Of a DNA stretch of 64,000 nt, positions 8,771-63,367 are shown in pieces (the stretch's first letter is position 1; the number at the start of each line of letters is the position of its first letter). Source of the stretch: a virus. The stretch spans positions 119,649 through 183,648 of the IMG/VR virus record IMGVR_UViG_3300017987_000005. One strand, written 5' to 3'. The notes under the pieces were generated by a model that did not search any database, was not told the DNA's origin, and saw only the letters and a list, made by a program, of their open reading frames with translations. The translations under genes and the position numbers were made by a program.

Positions 8771-10055
8771 TCCTTTCTATTACAATTACGTTAATATCAA
8801 TATCGGTAGCAAGCTTAGACTCTTTAACCGCTCCGATACTACGGTACCTCCCGAACCGTAGTGGAACGTCCACGACGGTAAGTTCATCAATAACTCTGGA
8901 AGGTGTCGTGACTTCATCATACCGCAAAGTCCACTTCAATCTTCTTCCAAGCCCTTCAGAATAAACTGAGCGTCGTTCAATGAGCCTACGTATCCCTTCC
9001 TCCATTCTAACAGCCTGCTCTGTACGATGAGCTTGGCATAAGAGGTCGAAACGAAATTCTGCCCAACGCTCCAGGTATGTTCGCGAAGAAAAGTCCCACC
9101 AGTTTATTTCAACTTTATCTTCATAGGGACCCCACTCTTCTTCATTAATAGTTGCTATAACAAGAGCAACTTCATCAGATAACTGGACAATAGGCTTCGT
9201 TTCAACATGAACTGGTGGCCTATGACCAAACTGGAATTCAACATATCCATCCTGCTCTGATGTAAATGTAATGTTTCCGTCAGAACTCCAATCAGAAACG
9301 ACGTTGGTCGTTTTCTGCGGGTCGTCATCTATATTGTATGCTCTGACGTACTCGACAATCGTAGACGCCGGGACCGTATTCCCTTCAGGGTCAGTCCTGG
9401 TCGTATACGGAAGCCTATATGTATCGGCTCTATCTAATTCTTTGACGACACGGTCATCAAAATAATAGTAATTCTGTAGGTGCATAGATATTGAACGAAT
9501 ACTATCATCAAGAAAATTATCCCGGATACTTTCGACAAAATCAATAGCTATCCAGTTAAACTTAGGCTTAGTATCCAAATCAACCGGGTACATCTTAATC
9601 CACATCATTATATTACGCTCGCCGGGCGAAAGACTCTGTATCCCCTGATGGAATTTGTTCTCATTCATCCACTCAGGCTCATCGTAGTCGTCCCCAAGAA
9701 GCATGTGAATCCCAAGTCCTCCAACATAATCTCCGCCGCCACCCCTGGCTCCCCCGATAGTCACCCAACGCTGACCATTAAAATACTGCCAATGATTGCC
9801 TCCATCAGTAGATATCCTAAATCCTAATTTGCAATCACTTGCACTAACAGTTAACCCGAAAAAACTATCGATAAGCGACGCCCGTAATGAATAACTCTTG
9901 AAGTCAGCAGGGTAATACATACCTCCACGCGCGTAGTTTCCGTATACATCCGTCTTACGCAACGATATAAAACGGGATGAAGTATCAAGGTAGGCATCCC
10001 TACTTGACATCTCCCATCCATCAAATCTGTTTGCGCAAAAAACTAGACTAGCCAT
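8745..10055 (-). CDS. putative tail terminator / neck protein
   Basis: 436 aa ORF in the head-tail junction; function from synteny only. Confidence 0.5.
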   Translation of the reverse strand: MASLVFCANRFDGWEMSSRDAYLDTSSRFISLRKTDVYGNYARGGMYYPADFKSYSLRASLIDSFFGLTVSASDCKLGFRISTDGGNHWQYFNGQRWVTIGGARGGGGDYVGGLGIHMLLGDDYDEPEWMNENKFHQGIQSLSPGERNIMMWIKMYPVDLDTKPKFNWIAIDFVESIRDNFLDDSIRSISMHLQNYYYFDDRVVKELDRADTYRLPYTTRTDPEGNTVPASTIVEYVRAYNIDDDPQKTTNVVSDWSSDGNITFTSEQDGYVEFQFGHRPPVHVETKPIVQLSDEVALVIATINEEEWGPYEDKVEINWWDFSSRTYLERWAEFRFDLLCQAHRTEQAVRMEEGIRRLIERRSVYSEGLGRRLKWTLRYDEVTTPSRVIDELTVVDVPLRFGRYRSIGAVKESKLATDIDINVIVIERSAQYEASY

Positions 10056-51146: not shown

Positions 51147-51650
51147 TGGCAGAGGGATGAAGCTTTATACTACGGTAATCCGCACGTCACTTTCTCATCC
51201 TTCGAATGACGATTGCTCAACAATGCGCAAACACAAAGTCTCTACCAAAACGGGAACGTCCGCAGCGAGAGGGATTCTAACCCCCATCTGTCCTTTTGCC
51301 AGCTTTCATGGCTCGGCGCATCACTCCGCCCGTAAATAAATCGTGCTCCGCACACTTCCACTACGAGCCGCTCCCTAGCGGTATATCATAAGTGGCAAGG
51401 CAAGGAATACGGTACGCTATTTTCAGACGCGCGTTCGCCGATATACTAACACGCCCTACTTTTACGTGCCGGCACCTTGCATGGCAACAATGTTAACCGT
51501 GTCCATCCAGTAAACGTTCATTGCTTCAACGATTCCCTCACTTGTAGCAAGGTTCACTCCACTCCAGCTCACTGGTTAAATGGGCAATCAATAATTCCCA
51601 CCCCGGTAAGAAGTTTTTCCGTTCTGAAACTCCAAAACACTCGCCACTAA
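51147..51650 (-). ncRNA. large unassigned structured RNA (~390-500 nt) ending in CCA
   Basis: No credible ORF; GAGGGA..TGAAGC pairs with GCTTCA-TCCCTC-TGCCA; T-loop hairpin GGGGG-TTAGAAT-CCCTC; bounded by boxA motifs. Confidence 0.6.
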
Positions 51651-57718: not shown

Positions 57719-57746
57719 ATTATAGCGTATAATTATGATATGTCAA
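57719..57746 (-). promoter_or_regulatory. sigma70-type promoter, 16-bp spacer
   Basis: TTGACA-N16-TATAAT then ATAAGCGTAGAC. Confidence 0.8.
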
Positions 57747-57754
57747 GCAAAATA

Positions 57755-57795
57755 TAAAAAAATTCCCGTCCCCAGGGCTTACCTGAAGACGGGAA
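57755..57795 (-). terminator. intrinsic terminator
   Basis: TTCCCGTC/GACGGGAA stem then T-tract. Confidence 0.65.
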
Positions 57796-58420
57796 CGCCG
57801 TAATCAACCACAATCGGTTGCCGTATTACCTTGTTCTTTGTATTACATAAACTTGCATTTATGAAGGTCGTATCACCATACGGACAGGAAACTCCGTAGG
57901 CGCTATGAATGTGTCCGAAAATATGATACTTCGGTTTTATCCTCCGTACAGTATCGTACAGGTCTGCGCACCCTACTGGAATCCCCCGAGATTGGTCGAG
58001 TATTCCGGCGGGCGGGGTATGGGTAATCAGGACATCAACATCCTCCGGAATCATATCCCACTTATCAGCAAGAGCTTCTCCCCGAGGAAGATTAAATGCC
58101 CAGTCCTCAAACTCCGGCTGCCACGGGCTTCCGTAAAATTTAATTCCGTCTATCGTGATTTGGTCATCTTCAAGATAGTATGCGACTGAATAGTCAAAAA
58201 AGTTCGGGATTTTATCCCAGTATTTCTGGAAGCATTTATCGTGGTTCCCGGCAACAACAATTTTATACGGATGCGGAAGGTATCTGATGAATTCTATAAA
58301 TGCTTTGACTTCCTTTCGTCCCCCGAATGCGCATATATCGCCAGCCACAACAAGGACGTCCCCTTTAGGAACATCAAAATTAAAATTAGCATGAAGGTCT
58401 GATATAATAGTTAAGCGCAT
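57779..58420 (-). CDS. calcineurin-like metallophosphoesterase
   Basis: SDLH, AGD, GNHD, THTPP, FGHIH. Confidence 0.92.
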   Translation of the reverse strand: MRLTIISDLHANFNFDVPKGDVLVVAGDICAFGGRKEVKAFIEFIRYLPHPYKIVVAGNHDKCFQKYWDKIPNFFDYSVAYYLEDDQITIDGIKFYGSPWQPEFEDWAFNLPRGEALADKWDMIPEDVDVLITHTPPAGILDQSRGIPVGCADLYDTVRRIKPKYHIFGHIHSAYGVSCPYGDTTFINASLCNTKNKVIRQPIVVDYGVPVFR

Positions 58421-58506
58421 TTCACTCTCCGTTTAAGTGCCGAGGCGAGCAGCCCAGGGTTCCGCGTGATTAGTGGAAGATGCTGCTCACCTCAGCGTGA
58501 GATTGT

Positions 58507-58534
58507 ATTATACCATATATTTTTAATTTGTCAA
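58507..58534 (-). promoter_or_regulatory. sigma70-type promoter, 16-bp spacer
   Basis: TTGACA-N16-TATAAT with extended TG. Confidence 0.75.
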
Positions 58535-58542
58535 GTAAAAAA

Positions 58543-58617
58543 TGGTATCCCCGGATGGAATCGAACCATCATCTAAAGCTTAGGAGGCTTTCGTAATATC
58601 CATTATACTACGGGAAC
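58543..58617 (-). tRNA. tRNA-Arg(CCT)
   Basis: Cloverleaf, AAAGC-CTCCTAA-GCTTT, CCA. Confidence 0.9.
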
Positions 58618-58618
58618 A

Positions 58619-58693
58619 TGGTACTCCCTGAAGGAATCGAACCCTCATCATCAGCTTAGAAGGCTGTTGCACTTTCCGTTGTGCTAAGGGAGC
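58619..58693 (-). tRNA. tRNA-Arg(TCT)
   Basis: Cloverleaf, CT-TCT-AA, CCA. Confidence 0.9.
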
Positions 58694-58694
58694 A

Positions 58695-58772
58695 TGGTGG
58701 ACGGGGTTGGATTTGAACCAACGACTCCTGCATTTTCAGTGCAGAGCTACTACCTGGCTGAGCTACCCGTCC
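58695..58772 (-). tRNA. tRNA-Phe(GAA)
   Basis: CTGCA-CTGAAAA-TGCAG, CCA. Confidence 0.9.
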
Positions 58773-59227
58773 TCTTCATTTCTATCTTCCTCATGGTCAT
58801 TATCGGTCTGCACAGTGCATCCCAACTTATTAACCTCGTCACACACATCTTTAAGAAATTCTCTCGTACCGTCACTGGCGTATGACTCCCATCCTTTTTC
58901 GTAATCCCTCGGATTAATCCATCCGAATATGCTGAAATCCTGGACGTATTCGAGTCTCTTAAATCCGCGTTCCTCAAACTCATTAATAAATCTTCGGTCG
59001 GTAACAACTTCTGACGAACGCACAGTCGGTTGACGATGCTTGCGCTCACTACTACTATAAAGTCTGTAATGACGCGCGATAGCTTCCTCTTCAAGAAGGC
59101 TATATATTCGAGCGAAGACTTCTACAGAAATCTTATAGAACTCATCATAGCTGAGTCGCTCTTCGTGCGTCACAATTACACAGCTACTATCTTCAGGAGA
59201 ACCGTAACCAAAACGATAACAATACAT
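58763..59227 (-). CDS. hypothetical protein within the tRNA array
   Basis: AGGAG RBS; 154 aa. Confidence 0.6.
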   Translation of the reverse strand: MYCYRFGYGSPEDSSCVIVTHEERLSYDEFYKISVEVFARIYSLLEEEAIARHYRLYSSSERKHRQPTVRSSEVVTDRRFINEFEERGFKRLEYVQDFSIFGWINPRDYEKGWESYASDGTREFLKDVCDEVNKLGCTVQTDNDHEEDRNEEDG

Positions 59228-59244
59228 GCATCTCCTTTTCTATC

Positions 59245-59319
59245 TGGTAGGCGCGGGAAGAGTTGAACTTCCGTTAGAAGTTTATAAGACTTCCGTTCTT
59301 ACCGTTGAACTACGCGCCA
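59245..59319 (-). tRNA. tRNA-Ile(TAT)
   Basis: GAAGT-CTTATAA-ACTTC, CCA; 1:72 mismatch. Confidence 0.88.
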
Positions 59320-59555
59320 GCTAAAGGTATAAGCTTATCCTCAGCGACAAGCAAATAACAACGATTTCCATCATCCATCTTAAAAGTACAAGGCCACGAA
59401 ACTCCCCAATGAGACGCACTCCACGACTCACGTGGTTCGTCTTTAATGGTCAGGTCTTCATAATCACGTTCTACATGCTTGACCTTCTGACCTATTCGGA
59501 AATCCTTTTTGACTCGAAATGTCCCGCATAATTTTCCAACAAACGACTCACCCAT
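59310..59555 (-). CDS. hypothetical protein
   Basis: AGGAG RBS. Confidence 0.55.
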   Translation of the reverse strand: MGESFVGKLCGTFRVKKDFRIGQKVKHVERDYEDLTIKDEPRESWSASHWGVSWPCTFKMDDGNRCYLLVAEDKLIPLAGA

Positions 59556-59574
59556 AACCCGCTCCTTTAATATC

Positions 59575-59652
59575 TGGTGGGCCCACAGGGATTTGAACCC
59601 CGGACACGCGCATTATGAGTGCGACGCTCTAACCAGACTGAGCTATGGGCCC
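59575..59652 (-). tRNA. tRNA-Ile2(CAT)
   Basis: GGGCCCA acceptor typical of Ile2, CT-CAT-AA, CCA. Confidence 0.8.
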
Positions 59653-59664
59653 GTGATAAATAAA

Positions 59665-59743
59665 TGGTCCTGCGAGGAGGATTTGAACCTCCGACCTCCT
59701 CCTTATCAGGGAGGCGCTACTAACCGGGCTGAGCTACCGCAGG
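59665..59743 (-). tRNA. tRNA-Ile(GAT)
   Basis: CCTCC-CTGATAA-GGAGG, CCA. Confidence 0.9.
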
Positions 59744-59746
59744 ATA

Positions 59747-59820
59747 TGGTTGCCCTACAGGGATTTGAACCCCAACTAATTGATTCAGAGTCAATCGTGC
59801 TACCGTTACACTATAGGGCA
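59747..59820 (-). tRNA. tRNA-Gln(CTG)
   Basis: ATTGA-CTCTGAA-TCAAT, CCA. Confidence 0.9.
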
Positions 59821-59899
59821 AAATACAGGGTTGCTGCAAAGCGCAACCCCAACTCCTTCTGCTCTTACATCAAAAATAAATGGCAGATGAGATAATATA

Positions 59900-59975
59900 T
59901 GGTGGGCGCGAGAGGATTCGAACCTCCGACTTCTTGCTTGTAAGGCAAGCGCTCTAGCCGCTGAACTACGCGCCC
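59900..59975 (-). tRNA. tRNA-Val(TAC)
   Basis: CTTGC-CTTACAA-GCAAG, CCA. Confidence 0.92.
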
Positions 59976-59977
59976 AA

Positions 59978-60055
59978 TGGCGAGGGTGACGGGACTCGAA
60001 CCCGCAAACTTCCTGCTCGACAGGCAGGTGCTCTACGCTATTGAACTACACCCCC
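59978..60055 (-). tRNA. tRNA-Asp(GTC)
   Basis: CCTGC-CTGTCGA-GCAGG, GCCA. Confidence 0.92.
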
Positions 60056-60065
60056 GTGTAATAAC

Positions 60066-60276
60066 TGGTGAGCATGACGGGATTCGAACCCGCACCGCAG
60101 CATTTAGGCCCAGCCGCTCATTAAGCTTTCCACTCTTTTCTCCCGTATATCCCTTCATCACTGCTTCCTCACCACAGAGCGAACTCTGGTCCCAGGTGTG
60201 ATAGACAGGTCAGCGAGCACTTACGGGTGCCTCGACAGGTCCACTTAAATCGTTCTACCAATTAAACTACATGCTC
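60066..60276 (-). ncRNA. tRNA-like RNA with ~130-nt structured insert replacing the anticodon loop
   Basis: GAGCATG/CATGCTC-ACCA, D arm, GCGGG-TTCGAAT-CCCGT; ATTTA/TAAAT stem encloses the insert. Confidence 0.8.
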
Positions 60277-60281
60277 AAACA

Positions 60282-60417
60282 TGGTCGCCAGCGGGGAGGT
60301 TCTCACTCCCATAGGCGGCTAACTCCTATTCAATCTCGATTCGAATCACCCGCAGCCGACGCGGTACACTTCGAATCTACAGCAGGGAATCGGTCACCCT
60401 GCTTGGCATCGCTGGCA
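60282..60417 (-). ncRNA. expanded tRNA-like RNA without a canonical anticodon loop
   Basis: GCCAGCG/CGCTGGC-GACCA, AGCAGGG/CCCTGCT, GATTCGAA/TTCGAATC, ATAGG/CCTAT, GGGAG-TGAGAAC-CTCCC. Confidence 0.75.
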
Positions 60418-60434
60418 TATAATTTTCAAAGAAC

Positions 60435-60511
60435 TGGTTACCCCGGAAGGATTTGAACCTTCAACAGCGACATTCAAAGTGTCGTGCTCTAGCCAATTGA
60501 GCTACGGGGTA
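60435..60511 (-). tRNA. tRNA-Gln(TTG)
   Basis: CGACA-CTTTGAA-TGTCG, CCA. Confidence 0.9.
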
Positions 60512-60554
60512 TTATATATTTACGAAAGAACAACTGCAAACGATTGCAAAAAAA

Positions 60555-60629
60555 TGGTGGGCCGAGAAGGGGTCGAACCTTCAACCTTCGGATTAAGAGT
60601 CCGCTGCTCTGCCATTGAGCTACCGGCCC
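60555..60629 (-). tRNA. tRNA-Lys(CTT)
   Basis: CT-CTT-AA loop, CCA. Confidence 0.92.
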
Positions 60630-60630
60630 T

Positions 60631-60656
60631 TGGTGTGCTGAGAGAGATTCGAACTC
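60631..60656 (-). pseudogene. orphan tRNA 3' fragment (T arm + acceptor + CCA)
   Basis: GAG-TTCGAAT-CTC..TCAGCAC-ACCA fused to the HNH stop codon. Confidence 0.7.
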
Positions 60657-61059
60657 AGTCGTCCCAATGAATAATCCTGTGACAGTTAGAGCAAACTACA
60701 TCGCACTTAGCTATCTCAGCGTCAATTCTTTCAAACGACCAACATCTCGCAACAGCTAACGACAATTCCGAATCTTTGTCCCCGGACTCGCGATGATGAA
60801 AATCCAAACATCTTGGGTCACTCATCCCGCACACTACACAAGGATGGCTGCTCTTATAATCAAACAAGTACTTCCTACGAATAGCTCTATTATCGCGATT
60901 AGTCTTAACACGCTTAGCTCTATCCCTACGGTAATACTTCTTAGAGTATTCAGCCATACACTCCTTACATCTCGTCTGGAGTCCGTCGGCCTGCTTACTA
61001 TTTTTAGAGAACAAAGATACGTCTTTACGCTTTCCACACTTTCCGCATAACTTATCCAT
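60655..61059 (-). CDS. HNH endonuclease with N-terminal Zn finger
   Basis: CGKC..CKEC; PCVVCG, LDFHH, EIAKCDVVCSNCHR. Confidence 0.9.
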   Translation of the reverse strand: MDKLCGKCGKRKDVSLFSKNSKQADGLQTRCKECMAEYSKKYYRRDRAKRVKTNRDNRAIRRKYLFDYKSSHPCVVCGMSDPRCLDFHHRESGDKDSELSLAVARCWSFERIDAEIAKCDVVCSNCHRIIHWDD

Positions 61060-61086
61060 AGCGATTCCTTAATTATAGTCATCCCT

Positions 61087-61114
61087 ATAGTAGCACTTTT
61101 AATCACTATGTCAA
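61087..61114 (-). promoter_or_regulatory. promoter for the HNH gene, 16-bp spacer
   Basis: TTGACA-N16-TACTAT with extended TG. Confidence 0.6.
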
Positions 61115-61125
61115 ATTAAAAATAA

Positions 61126-61202
61126 TGGTGGGACCGGTGGAAGTCGAATCCACAACCCCCGGATTAAAAGTCCGGTGCTCTATCCAGTTGAGCTACGGCC
61201 CC
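61126..61202 (-). tRNA. tRNA-Lys(TTT)
   Basis: CCGGA-CTTTTAA-TCCGG, CCA. Confidence 0.92.
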
Positions 61203-61221
61203 GTATCAAGGCTGCAACTCA

Positions 61222-61262
61222 CACTGAAAAGTGCGGTACTCTATCCGTTGAGTTACCAGCCC
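61222..61262 (-). pseudogene. orphan 5' half of a tRNA-Lys(TTT)
   Basis: GGGCTGG-TA-ACTC..GAGT-A-CCGCA-CT-TTT, then the cloverleaf breaks. Confidence 0.7.
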
Positions 61263-61264
61263 GT

Positions 61265-61608
61265 CTACTTACGTTTTCGCTTTCGTTTGTCCACTATATC
61301 TATTCCTTTATAATCTTCTAAATACCACTTAATAACAGTCATAACTACGTTCCGAAATTCCACTCCCCACACATCGCAAATACTCTCATGCAATCGGGTC
61401 AGTATCGTCTTCGGCTTCCATCCATGCTTCAGCGAATCCTCTACTAAATCAATCCAATCTGGCAACCAGTTGCGTTGATGTAGATTATGGAAAATTACGC
61501 CAAAGGCAATCCGTGCCTATCAAAGAGCTTGAAGACTCCCTTCACAACGAGCTTCCCTTCCGGAGTCTTCCCTGAAAAAGAAAGCTTCAACTTCTTCTTA
61601 CGTCCCAT
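61265..61608 (-). pseudogene. frameshifted gene for a protein with an AlaRS-like FKLxDxxGxPL motif
   Basis: MGRKKK...GVFKLFDRHGLPL continues in the -1 frame at ~61500 as GVIFHNL...PDWIDL. Confidence 0.55.
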
Positions 61609-61625
61609 GACGTCTCCTTATATAT

Positions 61626-61702
61626 TGGGGTGAGCGACGGGGGTCGAACCCGTACCTTCAGGGCCACAACCTGACATGCAGAGCCGCTACACTACGCCCA
61701 CC
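61626..61702 (-). tRNA. tRNA-His(GTG)
   Basis: G-1, TCAGG-TTGTGGC-CCTGA, C-CCA. Confidence 0.92.
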
Positions 61703-61712
61703 GTGTAAATCA

Positions 61713-61755
61713 TGGAGCGGGTATGGAGATTCAAACTCCACCTTCTAGCCTGGGA
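61713..61755 (-). pseudogene. displaced 3' half of a tRNA-Gly(CCC)
   Basis: CCC-AG-GCTAG..TGGAG-TTTGAAT-CTCCA-TACCCGC-TCCA; 5' half absent. Confidence 0.8.
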
Positions 61756-61759
61756 TGAA

Positions 61760-62437
61760 TCACATAACCCACTCTTCTTTTTCAAATCCTACAAACTCCT
61801 GAATAGCGCCATATAATTTTTGAATAACTTCCGTACAACAAACTGAAACATTACACAATCCATAAACATTTGATTTTCTTTTATGCTTAGAACTACTCGG
61901 ATATCTATCAACTTGCGGCTTCGTAAAATTATCAATAGATATACCTAAAAGCTCTGACCAATATTGTTCAATGTCACTGACAGTCAGCCCCTTATCAGTA
62001 TAACAAACAACATATGCTCGCATCTTATCACTAGAAACATTAAAGAACTTACGCAAAAACTTAACATAAAATAACATCATATTCTCGTCCATATTTGAAA
62101 ACTTAGCTTGGTTTCGCAACGTCTTACTTCCTTCTGCCCAATATAACATGCACCCTGCTATGAATTCAGGGTCTCGTTCCCGAGCAAGCTCTCTTCCATC
62201 ATTTTGCCACTGCTCTCTAAGCTTACGATAATATTTTTTCCTACGCTGCCCTTCAGCATATGGACCTTTTCTCGAATTATCGTAGATAATTTTCTCCTGC
62301 TCAGCAGTAAGCTGTATATCACGAACCCACACACTAACCGTCCCTTTGCTTACGCCAAGCTTATCAGCAATAACTGATAAAGGAAGTCCATCCTCCTTGC
62401 GCATCCTACGGGCTTCTTTACGCTCTTTAGCTTTCAT
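61760..62437 (-). CDS. HTH + LAGLIDADG-like endonuclease
   Basis: IADKLGVSKGTVSVWV HTH; GCMLYWAEGSK, FSN.D, YW. Confidence 0.75.
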   Translation of the reverse strand: MKAKERKEARRMRKEDGLPLSVIADKLGVSKGTVSVWVRDIQLTAEQEKIIYDNSRKGPYAEGQRRKKYYRKLREQWQNDGRELARERDPEFIAGCMLYWAEGSKTLRNQAKFSNMDENMMLFYVKFLRKFFNVSSDKMRAYVVCYTDKGLTVSDIEQYWSELLGISIDNFTKPQVDRYPSSSKHKRKSNVYGLCNVSVCCTEVIQKLYGAIQEFVGFEKEEWVM

Positions 62438-62522
62438 AATAACTCCTTAAATAGAACTCACGTATATATACATATATATAGTAGACATAAGTTCTAAAAT
62501 GTCAACTAAAAAGCGAAAAAAG

Positions 62523-62596
62523 AGCGAGAGGCGGGCCTCGAACCCGCAACCTTTTGCCTGGGAAGCAAATGCTCTGCCTATTTGAGCTACTCCCGC
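62523..62596 (-). tRNA. tRNA-Gly(CCC)
   Basis: TTTGC-TTCCCAG-GCAAA; no encoded CCA. Confidence 0.9.
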
Positions 62597-62652
62597 ATTA
62601 TATCAAAAGTGTCAATGAAGCTAGCGTGCTAATCGCTGACACTATACCCGCA

Positions 62653-62728
62653 TGGAGTGAGCGACGGGGGTCGAACCCGCGACCATCAGATTGGAAATCT
62701 GAGACTCTACCAACTGAGTTACGCTCAC
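62653..62728 (-). tRNA. tRNA-Gly(TCC)
   Basis: TCAGA-TTTCCAA-TCTGA, TCCA. Confidence 0.9.
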
Positions 62729-62756
62729 ATTCAAATCAATTTTCAAAAGAACAATA

Positions 62757-62832
62757 TGGAGCTGACGGCGGGAATCGAACCCGCGACCTCATCCTTACCA
62801 AGGATGTGCTCTACCGGCTGAGCTACGTCAGC
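62757..62832 (-). tRNA. tRNA-Thr(GGT)
   Basis: CATCC-TTGGTAA-GGATG. Confidence 0.93.
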
Positions 62833-62840
62833 CTATTAAA

Positions 62841-63034
62841 ATCCAGTTCCGTAAGCGGGATTCTGTTCTATCCTATCATTTATCTTTGCCACTACCATTC
62901 CTCATCGGGCTGCTCACCCCCTCGGATAATTCGTGTTGCTCCCTCGGTGGTGCAATCGAGTGCAAACTCTCCCACCTTAAGCAGCGGAGTCCCGACTTTC
63001 CTCAGACTTACGTCCGCGATAGGTCGAACTGGAT
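62841..63034 (-). ncRNA. rnpB: minimal RNase P RNA (~194 nt)
   Basis: P1 ATCCAGTTC/GAACTGGAT; CR-I GAGGAAAGTCGGG; CR-V AACAGAATCCCGCTTA; GGAGCAA and AGATAAATGAT. Confidence 0.88.
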
Positions 63035-63043
63035 ATCTATTTA

Positions 63044-63119
63044 TGGAGCCACGAGTCGGACTCGAACCGACAACCTGTTGATTACAAGTCAACTGCACTT
63101 CCAATTGTGCTACCGTGGC
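63044..63119 (-). tRNA. tRNA-Thr(TGT)
   Basis: GTTGA-CTTGTAA-TCAAC. Confidence 0.92.
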
Positions 63120-63122
63120 ATA

Positions 63123-63200
63123 TGGAGCCGGCGGGGGGACTCGAACCCTCCAACTTCCGCATTACGAGTGCGGCGCTCTGCCAATTAAAGCTACGCCGGC
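63123..63200 (-). tRNA. tRNA-Thr(CGT)
   Basis: CCGCA-CTCGTAA-TGCGG. Confidence 0.9.
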
Positions 63201-63203
63201 TTA

Positions 63204-63279
63204 TCGGGCTGAATGGATTCGAACCATCGGTCTCGTGGCCCCCAGCCACGCGTCTTAAGCCAAGCTAGACTACAGCCCG
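63204..63279 (-). tRNA. tRNA-Pro(GGG)
   Basis: CGTGG-CTGGGGG-CCACG; no encoded CCA. Confidence 0.9.
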
Positions 63280-63287
63280 TTTATTTT

Positions 63288-63364
63288 TGGTCTGGATGAG
63301 AGGATTTGAACCTCCGACTTCGTGCTCCCAAGGCACGCGCCCTACCAAGCTGGGCTACATCCAG
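63288..63364 (-). tRNA. tRNA-Pro(TGG)
   Basis: CGTGC-CTTGGGA-GCACG, CCA. Confidence 0.92.
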
Positions 63365-63367
63365 ATA

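Follow-up and report, generated by a model that had tools for sequence, protein, structure and literature searches.

Why would a phage keep an RNase P RNA that has been stripped of the half that reads the tRNA, and would such an RNA still work as an enzyme? RNase P RNA is usually viewed as a cellular two-domain ribozyme, the specificity domain (S-domain) of which measures the tRNA. The locus that raises the question lies on the minus strand of a 64,000-nt stretch of viral DNA, called the window throughout, at positions 62841-63034, and had been read by an earlier note as a phage-encoded RNase P RNA of about 194 nt without most of the S-domain. That reading holds and its coordinates proved exact. 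The Rfam model RF00010 matches positions 62836-63035 over model positions 1-367, with 61 bits (E 5e-18).

Results

The window makes up the last 64 kb of a virus record, 183,648 bp long, that has direct terminal repeats, is rated 100% complete and was detected in marine sediment and seawater runs; the sequence of the gene is identical in contigs of four runs, three of them possibly source samples (X5 spans 62859-63014). The phage is tailed, with a sheath protein, and its closest cultured capsid proteins are those of Streptomyces phages at ~33% identity; its tmRNA and its σ70-type promoters point to a bacterium as the host. The 45 tRNAs of the genome and its one tmRNA are all encoded by the minus strand and form an array, which takes up window positions 58543-64000, crosses the terminal repeat to go on at genome 1-4953 and contains the likely substrates of the RNA. 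The T-loops are normal in 44 of the 45 tRNAs, CCA is encoded in 39 of the 45, and 13 spacers measure 1-3 nt. A TROVE/Ro60 gene, with a YrlA-like match downstream, and an RtcB ligase lie within or beside the array.

Other features of this region were recorded in their own right. The TROVE/Ro60 gene (L018:1020-3523, genome, past the window end) is followed by about six Y-RNA-like repeat units, among which there is one YrlA match of 40.6 bits, below the cut-off; RtcB is found at 7846-9015 of L018 and an Apyc1-like metallo-β-lactamase at 8993-9874. Endonuclease-like genes interrupt tRNA-Lys, tRNA-Gly and tRNA-Cys (window 60631-61262 and 61713-62596; L018:225-860), leaving orphan tRNA halves, with an intact replacement tRNA present. 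A strong 70-nt hairpin (window 58430-58500, minus strand, z -6.3), without Rfam match, stands just behind a perfect TTGACA-16-TATAAT promoter, and a 106-nt rod-like hairpin (L018:5020-5125, minus strand, z -2.8) stands upstream of the tRNA array; the loop region of the latter is faintly like the 4.5S SRP motif, and Rfam gave no match to it at E<=0.05. The best minus-strand σ70-type promoter matches (window 57719-62505; L018:800-5369) have 16-nt spacers in nearly all cases.

The helix map locates the deletion within the RNA. At the ends of the gene, P1 pairs over 9 bp (63034-63026 with 62849-62841). It is followed by P2 (6 bp, 5' strand 63023-63018, partner 62877-62872) and the P3 hairpin (4 bp, 63015-63004) with its GNRA loop, here a GUAA tetraloop, the two together occupying 63004-63023, and then by CR-I with the P4 5' strand (62990-63003), in which the bulged catalytic U corresponding to E. 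coli U69 is at 62995. All eight P4 pairs are Watson-Crick, the 3' strand lying with CR-V at 62852-62866. P5 (62989-62986 with 62942-62939) and the J5/15 CAA, with the equivalent of A248 at 62937, delimit 62936-62989, and the P15-P16-P17 arm (62890-62935) carries GGU at 62896-62894, the pairing site for the RCCA of the substrate. The P6 pseudoknot joins GCUGCU at 62980-62985 to AGCAGC at 62914-62909 in L17. A 4-nt linker replaces P18 ahead of CR-IV (AGAUAAAUG, 62885-62877; 62877-62889 with the linker), and P19 is absent ahead of CR-V. In the window copy L15 differs from the family consensus on its 5' side, P16 is short and CR-I has the bacterial AAAGUC form.

The earlier note had described P1, P2/P3 and both P4 strands as intact, with which the helix map agrees, the P4 strands being as it quoted them; the helices it listed thus stand, but its inventory missed the P6 pseudoknot and did not list the loss of P18 and P19. 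It had also counted some 45 nt between CR-I and GGAGCAA. Measured from where the P4 5' strand ends, the distance is in fact 47 nt, but 5-6 nt of it form the P6 strand and so belong to the catalytic domain (C-domain): the 43 nt between the P5 strands are made up of that strand, short linkers and a true S-domain remnant of 31 nt (62946-62976), which consists of a 5-bp P7, a small hairpin (62969-62958) and an internal loop of the conserved form GA / G-N(4-5)-A. P9-P14 and the CR-II/CR-III T-loops are absent from the window copy, the corresponding RF00010 positions being deleted, and so are P19 and P18, the GNRA loop of which docks on P8; the loss of P18 fits that of P8, as P8 is its docking site (PMC13462272).

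The covariance-model comparison that the earlier note had proposed as a check was run: RF00010 came out best, the archaeal model followed with 47 bits, and the type B (RF00011) and type T (RF02357) models gave no match. The gathering score of RF00010 is 100 bits, for which reason standard annotation misses the gene. The family model R1 gives 179 bits for the window copy, a sequence included in its training. A protein-coding reading was rejected, since overlapping ORFs cross tRNA genes and the variation within the family follows helices, not codons. That the element is a real RNase P RNA gene in which the catalytic half is kept whole is well supported, and the RNA is a predicted ribozyme.

The miniature, as we call it, sits between two tRNA-Thr genes on its own strand, as the earlier note had said: tRNA-Thr(UGU), with encoded CCA (63044-63119), ends 9 nt ahead of P1 and tRNA-Thr(GGU) (62757-62832) begins 8 nt past it. 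The co-transcription also asserted there is something that we infer from this tight spacing and from the spacers flanking the miniature, which contain no minus-strand promoter or terminator. The miniature would then be transcribed inside the tRNA operon and excised as the neighbouring tRNAs mature, the RNase P cut at the 5' end of tRNA-Thr(GGU) freeing its 3' end. Cleavage of this downstream tRNA in cis, via the 8-nt tether, was considered and seems unlikely on geometric grounds, given the T. maritima structure. In two other members (L076:13775-14022, from phage DLP_6, and L070:6071-6303, from Achromobacter anxifer) P1 is followed by ACCA, and the ribozyme precursor there resembles a stem+NCCA substrate of RNase P.

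Pattern scans of viral contigs, metagenomes and cell genomes brought together about 40 distinct relatives; the loose patterns also picked up chance matches to coding sequence (in one scan, about a third of the loci), and as these lacked CR-V they were dropped. One relative lies unannotated in the tRNA array of the cultured Stenotrophomonas phage vB_SmaS-DLP_6 (KU682439.2, about 105774-106021) and scores 133 bits with R1, of whose training set it is part; blastn of the window element against cultured phages returned nothing useful, and DLP_6 was reached only via relatives. Core identity to the window copy ranges from 52 to 78% across the family, the closest relative found (L036) being at 78%. 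In the RNA tree the window copy is placed without support, and the tree does not give the direction of transfer. A same-strand tRNA lies at most 30 nt from CR-V in 17 of 37 distinct members, and a tRNA within 1.5 kb in 26 of the 37.

When 36 members (median pairwise identity 62%) were aligned with MAFFT on sequence only, the structure of the window copy was paired in 89% of cells, against 33-42% with the partners slid, and 45 of its 53 pairs underwent compensatory changes, the structure having been drawn from one of the aligned sequences. P4 is 99.7% paired, with compensation at 6 of 8 pairs, P5 100% paired with compensation at 3 of 4, P2 paired in 90% of cells, again with compensatory changes, and the helices of P15-P16-P17 are 86-95% paired. 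The GGU of L15 is invariant (36/36) and figured in none of the fetching patterns; for CR-I, GCRA and CR-IV the search patterns themselves account for part of the invariance. A per-sequence test found at least five Watson-Crick pairs in P6 in 29 of the 36 members, against 3.4 in shuffles (maximum 9), with cross-pairings at 15%. In four members of about 150 nt (L002:9718-9880 and L011:1542-1708, plus strand; L006:7650-7815 and L010:9780-9947, minus strand) the S-domain is wholly gone and P5 closes directly on the P6 strand; a tRNA directly follows each of them, and comparison of L002 with L010 reveals compensatory changes in P6. Some relatives (L005, L008, L009, L016, L071) retain a hairpin where P18 or P19 would lie. 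The window copy conforms to the family pattern of a full C-domain, a P7 stub with its GA/hairpin/G..A loop, usually no P18, a tRNA array and no rnpA. The alignment shows a complete catalytic domain, evidently under purifying selection, from which the elbow-reading S-domain and the anchor P18 are gone.

Compensatory changes across the 36 members, together with the S-domain-less relatives of ~150 nt, indicate that the deletion is old and conserved and not a recent accident; a recent deletion among relatives, which would have told against the earlier note, was looked for and was not encountered. These data bear directly on the idea that the locus is what remains of a host rnpB, once captured and now in decay. 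A score under the Rfam gathering threshold and an unremarkable minimum free energy (z -1.4) would agree with decay, but the RNA is pseudoknotted and such RNAs are scored poorly by MFE folding, which is therefore uninformative for the miniature, and dozens of divergent records share the reduced architecture and show compensatory changes, so that decay is largely refuted and has become a most improbable explanation.

Three reduced RNase P RNAs with other deletions were noticed in passing. Two are in viral tRNA arrays (L013:10578-10806, plus strand, and L007:4907-5238, minus strand), spanning 159 and 262 nt from CR-I to CR-V, and the third, in an Acidobacteriota draft genome (L068:3852-4070, minus strand), is a 197-nt RNA scoring 122 bits with RF00010 from which P15-P17 are also missing. 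A ~160-aa protein with a YIGxDS motif, which we take to be an RNase H-like YkuK/DUF458 protein, is encoded near five carrier arrays (L021, L022, L026, L040, L076) and has no match among the ORFs of the window phage.

With type A RNA (RF00010; E. coli M1 RNA/rnpB, T. maritima) the miniature shares P1-P5, P15-P17, P6, CR-I, CR-IV, CR-V, the bulged U, A248 and the GGU of L15. It differs in measuring 194 nt against ~350-400, in having the 31-nt P7 stub in place of the P7-P14 S-domain, in lacking P18/P19, and in being phage-encoded, inside a tRNA operon and without rnpA; where E. coli has AAG in P4, the miniature family is variable, with compensation. Because it falls short in the S-domain, in P18 and in its score, the miniature is, by its anatomy, a reduced variant and not a canonical type A member. 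Type B RNA (RF00011) has P5.1/P15.1 and no P6/P16/P17, whereas the miniature possesses P6/P16/P17.

The earlier note had also compared the miniature to the short archaeal type T RNAs, a likeness which comes down to size, RF02357 giving no match at E<=10. Type T RNAs are of similar size, have their S-domain reduced to a stem or hairpin and keep P15-17/P6 (PMC13462272). They differ by a T-loop on an extended P7 and by Pop5/Rpp30/Rpp29/L7Ae as cofactors, with Thermoproteaceae as hosts; the miniature has a 5-bp P7 and no visible T-loop consensus, and the extruded 4-5-nt loop of its stub is mostly pyrimidine-rich and variable, T-loops being hard to call from sequence (PMC13462272). Its context, unlike theirs, is a phage with bacterial-type promoters, a tmRNA and tRNAs. 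The likeness seems convergent, and the miniature is no type T member.

The closest functional counterparts are engineered: C-domain-only RNAs derived from E. coli (delta94-204; C-domain) and B. subtilis (C-domain) have the same functional anatomy, but the miniature occurs in nature and is conserved, and it differs from them further in the absence of P18 and in a conserved stub of its own. The engineered RNAs are active at lower efficiency, aided by protein, and a bacterial C-domain without its S-domain cleaves pre-tRNA (PMC11143913, PMC13022451). When the S-domain is deleted, kcat/KM falls by as much as 10^4-fold (PMC13022451), and deletion of P18 from the E. coli RNA lowers the rate more than 3000-fold (PMC11143913), so the phage enzyme could be weak unless these losses are compensated. 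Type T RNase P is functional with an S-domain of hairpin size (PMC13462272).

The complete phage genome encodes neither RnpA nor HARP, which makes host RnpA the likely and simplest partner; RnpA is likewise absent from 35 viral carrier records (five of them at least 90% complete) and from DLP_6. One may ask whether the miniature is instead an incomplete enzyme that needs a partner supplied by the phage, either an S-domain RNA acting in trans or an unrecognised protein, for recognition of the elbow. The separated S- and C-domains of B. subtilis do reassemble in trans (PMC11143913), the conserved GA / G..A loop of the stub could serve as a docking site, and the genome contains further large RNAs without explanation (51147-51650). 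This proposal is nevertheless quite unlikely, as no second RNase P RNA or separate S-domain fragment is found in the genome with RF00010 at E<=10, no protein family recurs near the miniature in more than 5 of 38 loci, the ~150-nt members have no remnant to dock on, and copies in planctomycetes stand among cellular genes.

Conservation within the RNA is highest in its protein-binding face (P2-P4, J18/2), and two elements that favour efficient catalysis, the S-domain and P18, have been lost. Both facts would suit a decoy without catalytic activity, which by titrating the host's RnpA or attaching to CCA ends would disturb the maturation of host tRNAs or absorb an anti-RNase P nuclease. However, the bulged U, the A248 equivalent, GGU, CR-V and P6/P15-17 are all retained, the 45 tRNAs of the phage themselves need RNase P activity, and in four cell genomes no RNase P RNA other than the miniature was found; a decoy is thus very improbable.

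These four are planctomycete-related draft genomes (L067/L092 in G002, L093 in G051, L100 in G099, L101 in G100), incomplete assemblies in which no full-length RNase P RNA was found. Among 28 relatives without the miniature, 25 have a full-length RNase P RNA and 3 have no RNase P RNA at all; the association of the miniature with a missing full-length rnpB (Fisher p = 0.001) is computed on genomes that are not independent, and the four cases themselves are not independent because their RNAs group with those of two viral records in a single supported clade. Three of the four carriers have rnpA and none has HARP, and the neighbours of the miniature are cellular metabolic and signalling genes. As the sole RNase P RNA found in these drafts, the miniature may well handle the ordinary tRNAs of a cell, for which its distribution is the strongest indirect indication. 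In Achromobacter anxifer a full-length rnpB is accompanied by a miniature within a 32-tRNA array.

The earlier note had inferred that a relaxed-specificity ribozyme could mature many stem+CCA RNAs of the phage, ribozyme and atypical substrates making one system. The "many" shrink to three non-tRNA stem+NCCA RNAs in the array, all on the minus strand: one of 135 nt (window 60282-60416), whose size and arrangement of the T arm are like those of T4 species 1 RNA, one of 211 nt (window 60066-60276), in which both the D and the T arm are intact, and one of 61 nt (genome 3900-3960). The remaining CCA-ending scraps appear to be tRNA halves from the endonuclease insertions. The idea that the ribozyme is kept for such RNAs, as poorly handled by the host enzyme, gains something from the several stem+NCCA RNAs present in the DLP_6 and Achromobacter arrays, and from the E. 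coli delta94-204 RNA, which with protein still cleaves pre-4.5S RNA but leaves pre-tRNA-Tyr Su3 uncleaved (PMC11143913). It is weakened by the host holoenzyme, which already cleaves hairpin substrates and pre-4.5S RNA (PMC11143913). Furthermore, a DNA-level search of the 36 other carrier records, most of them partial, returned no homologue of the 135- and 211-nt RNAs (60066-60417) beyond short D- and T-arm matches, and in 12 of the 22 carrier loci scanned, which are locus fragments, no stem+NCCA RNA was detected. The scan needs a stem and an encoded CCA; RNAs without encoded CCA escape it, as did the T4 and T5 stable RNAs, which do not satisfy this rule, so that its zero counts are soft. T4 and T5 have tRNA-like stable RNAs (rnaC and RNA2, respectively) but no miniature. 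With the planctomycete cases implying ordinary tRNA substrates as well, the one-system proposal has little left to support it, and upkeep of the ribozyme for atypical RNAs is unlikely.

Discussion

The model we propose, and which we hold to be probable, is that of a working, streamlined catalytic subunit of a bacterial-type RNase P that would borrow the RnpA of the host and cleave the pre-tRNAs of the phage in trans, as extra or backup capacity. Deprived of a T-loop ruler, the ribozyme would hold its substrate through the acceptor stem, the pairing of RCCA with GGU, the contact of A248 at N-1 and the 5' leader. Its targets would mainly be the ordinary, tightly packed pre-tRNAs of the phage, and probably also the pre-tmRNA, and its purpose would be to provide added or backup 5'-maturation when the host RNA is limiting or destroyed. 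In this it would act alongside the tRNA set of the phage, the tmRNA, RtcB and the Ro60/Y RNAs. Some observations weigh against the model: six cultured phages, tRNA-rich or tRNA-bearing, have no miniature, the window copy has its variant L15 and short P16, and the E. coli delta94-204 RNA fails on pre-tRNA-Tyr Su3 (PMC11143913). A relaxed specificity of the miniature may reasonably be inferred from the published S-domain deletions (PMC11143913, PMC13022451); the looser specificity is likely to be a side effect and not the purpose.

Beyond the phage, the family could represent a class of bacterial-type RNase P RNA, undescribed and spread by viruses, which matures ordinary tRNAs with one host protein and no elbow-reading domain, is reduced to as little as ~150 nt and replaces rnpB in some planctomycetes; in this full form the proposal is tentative, and we lean somewhat against it. 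Our literature search found no description of a phage miniature RNase P family. A 2024 paper reportedly describes a "miniature RNase P" in giant phages, and we put the chance that the family has already been published at about one half. Since miniature RNase P genes score below the Rfam thresholds, they are routinely overlooked.

In conclusion, a natural and conserved RNase P RNA made of the catalytic domain only, carried by phages, makes the sufficiency of the C-domain in vivo testable, and raises the question of what offsets the loss of the S-domain and of P18. Experiments are feasible, since members of the family are available in culture, in phage DLP_6 and in an Achromobacter strain. With this finding, 5' maturation would join the functions in translation with which large phages come equipped. 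Could such an RNA have taken the place of rnpB in some planctomycetes? If so, the S-domain, the very part by which RNase P RNA measures a tRNA, would be dispensable in living bacteria.
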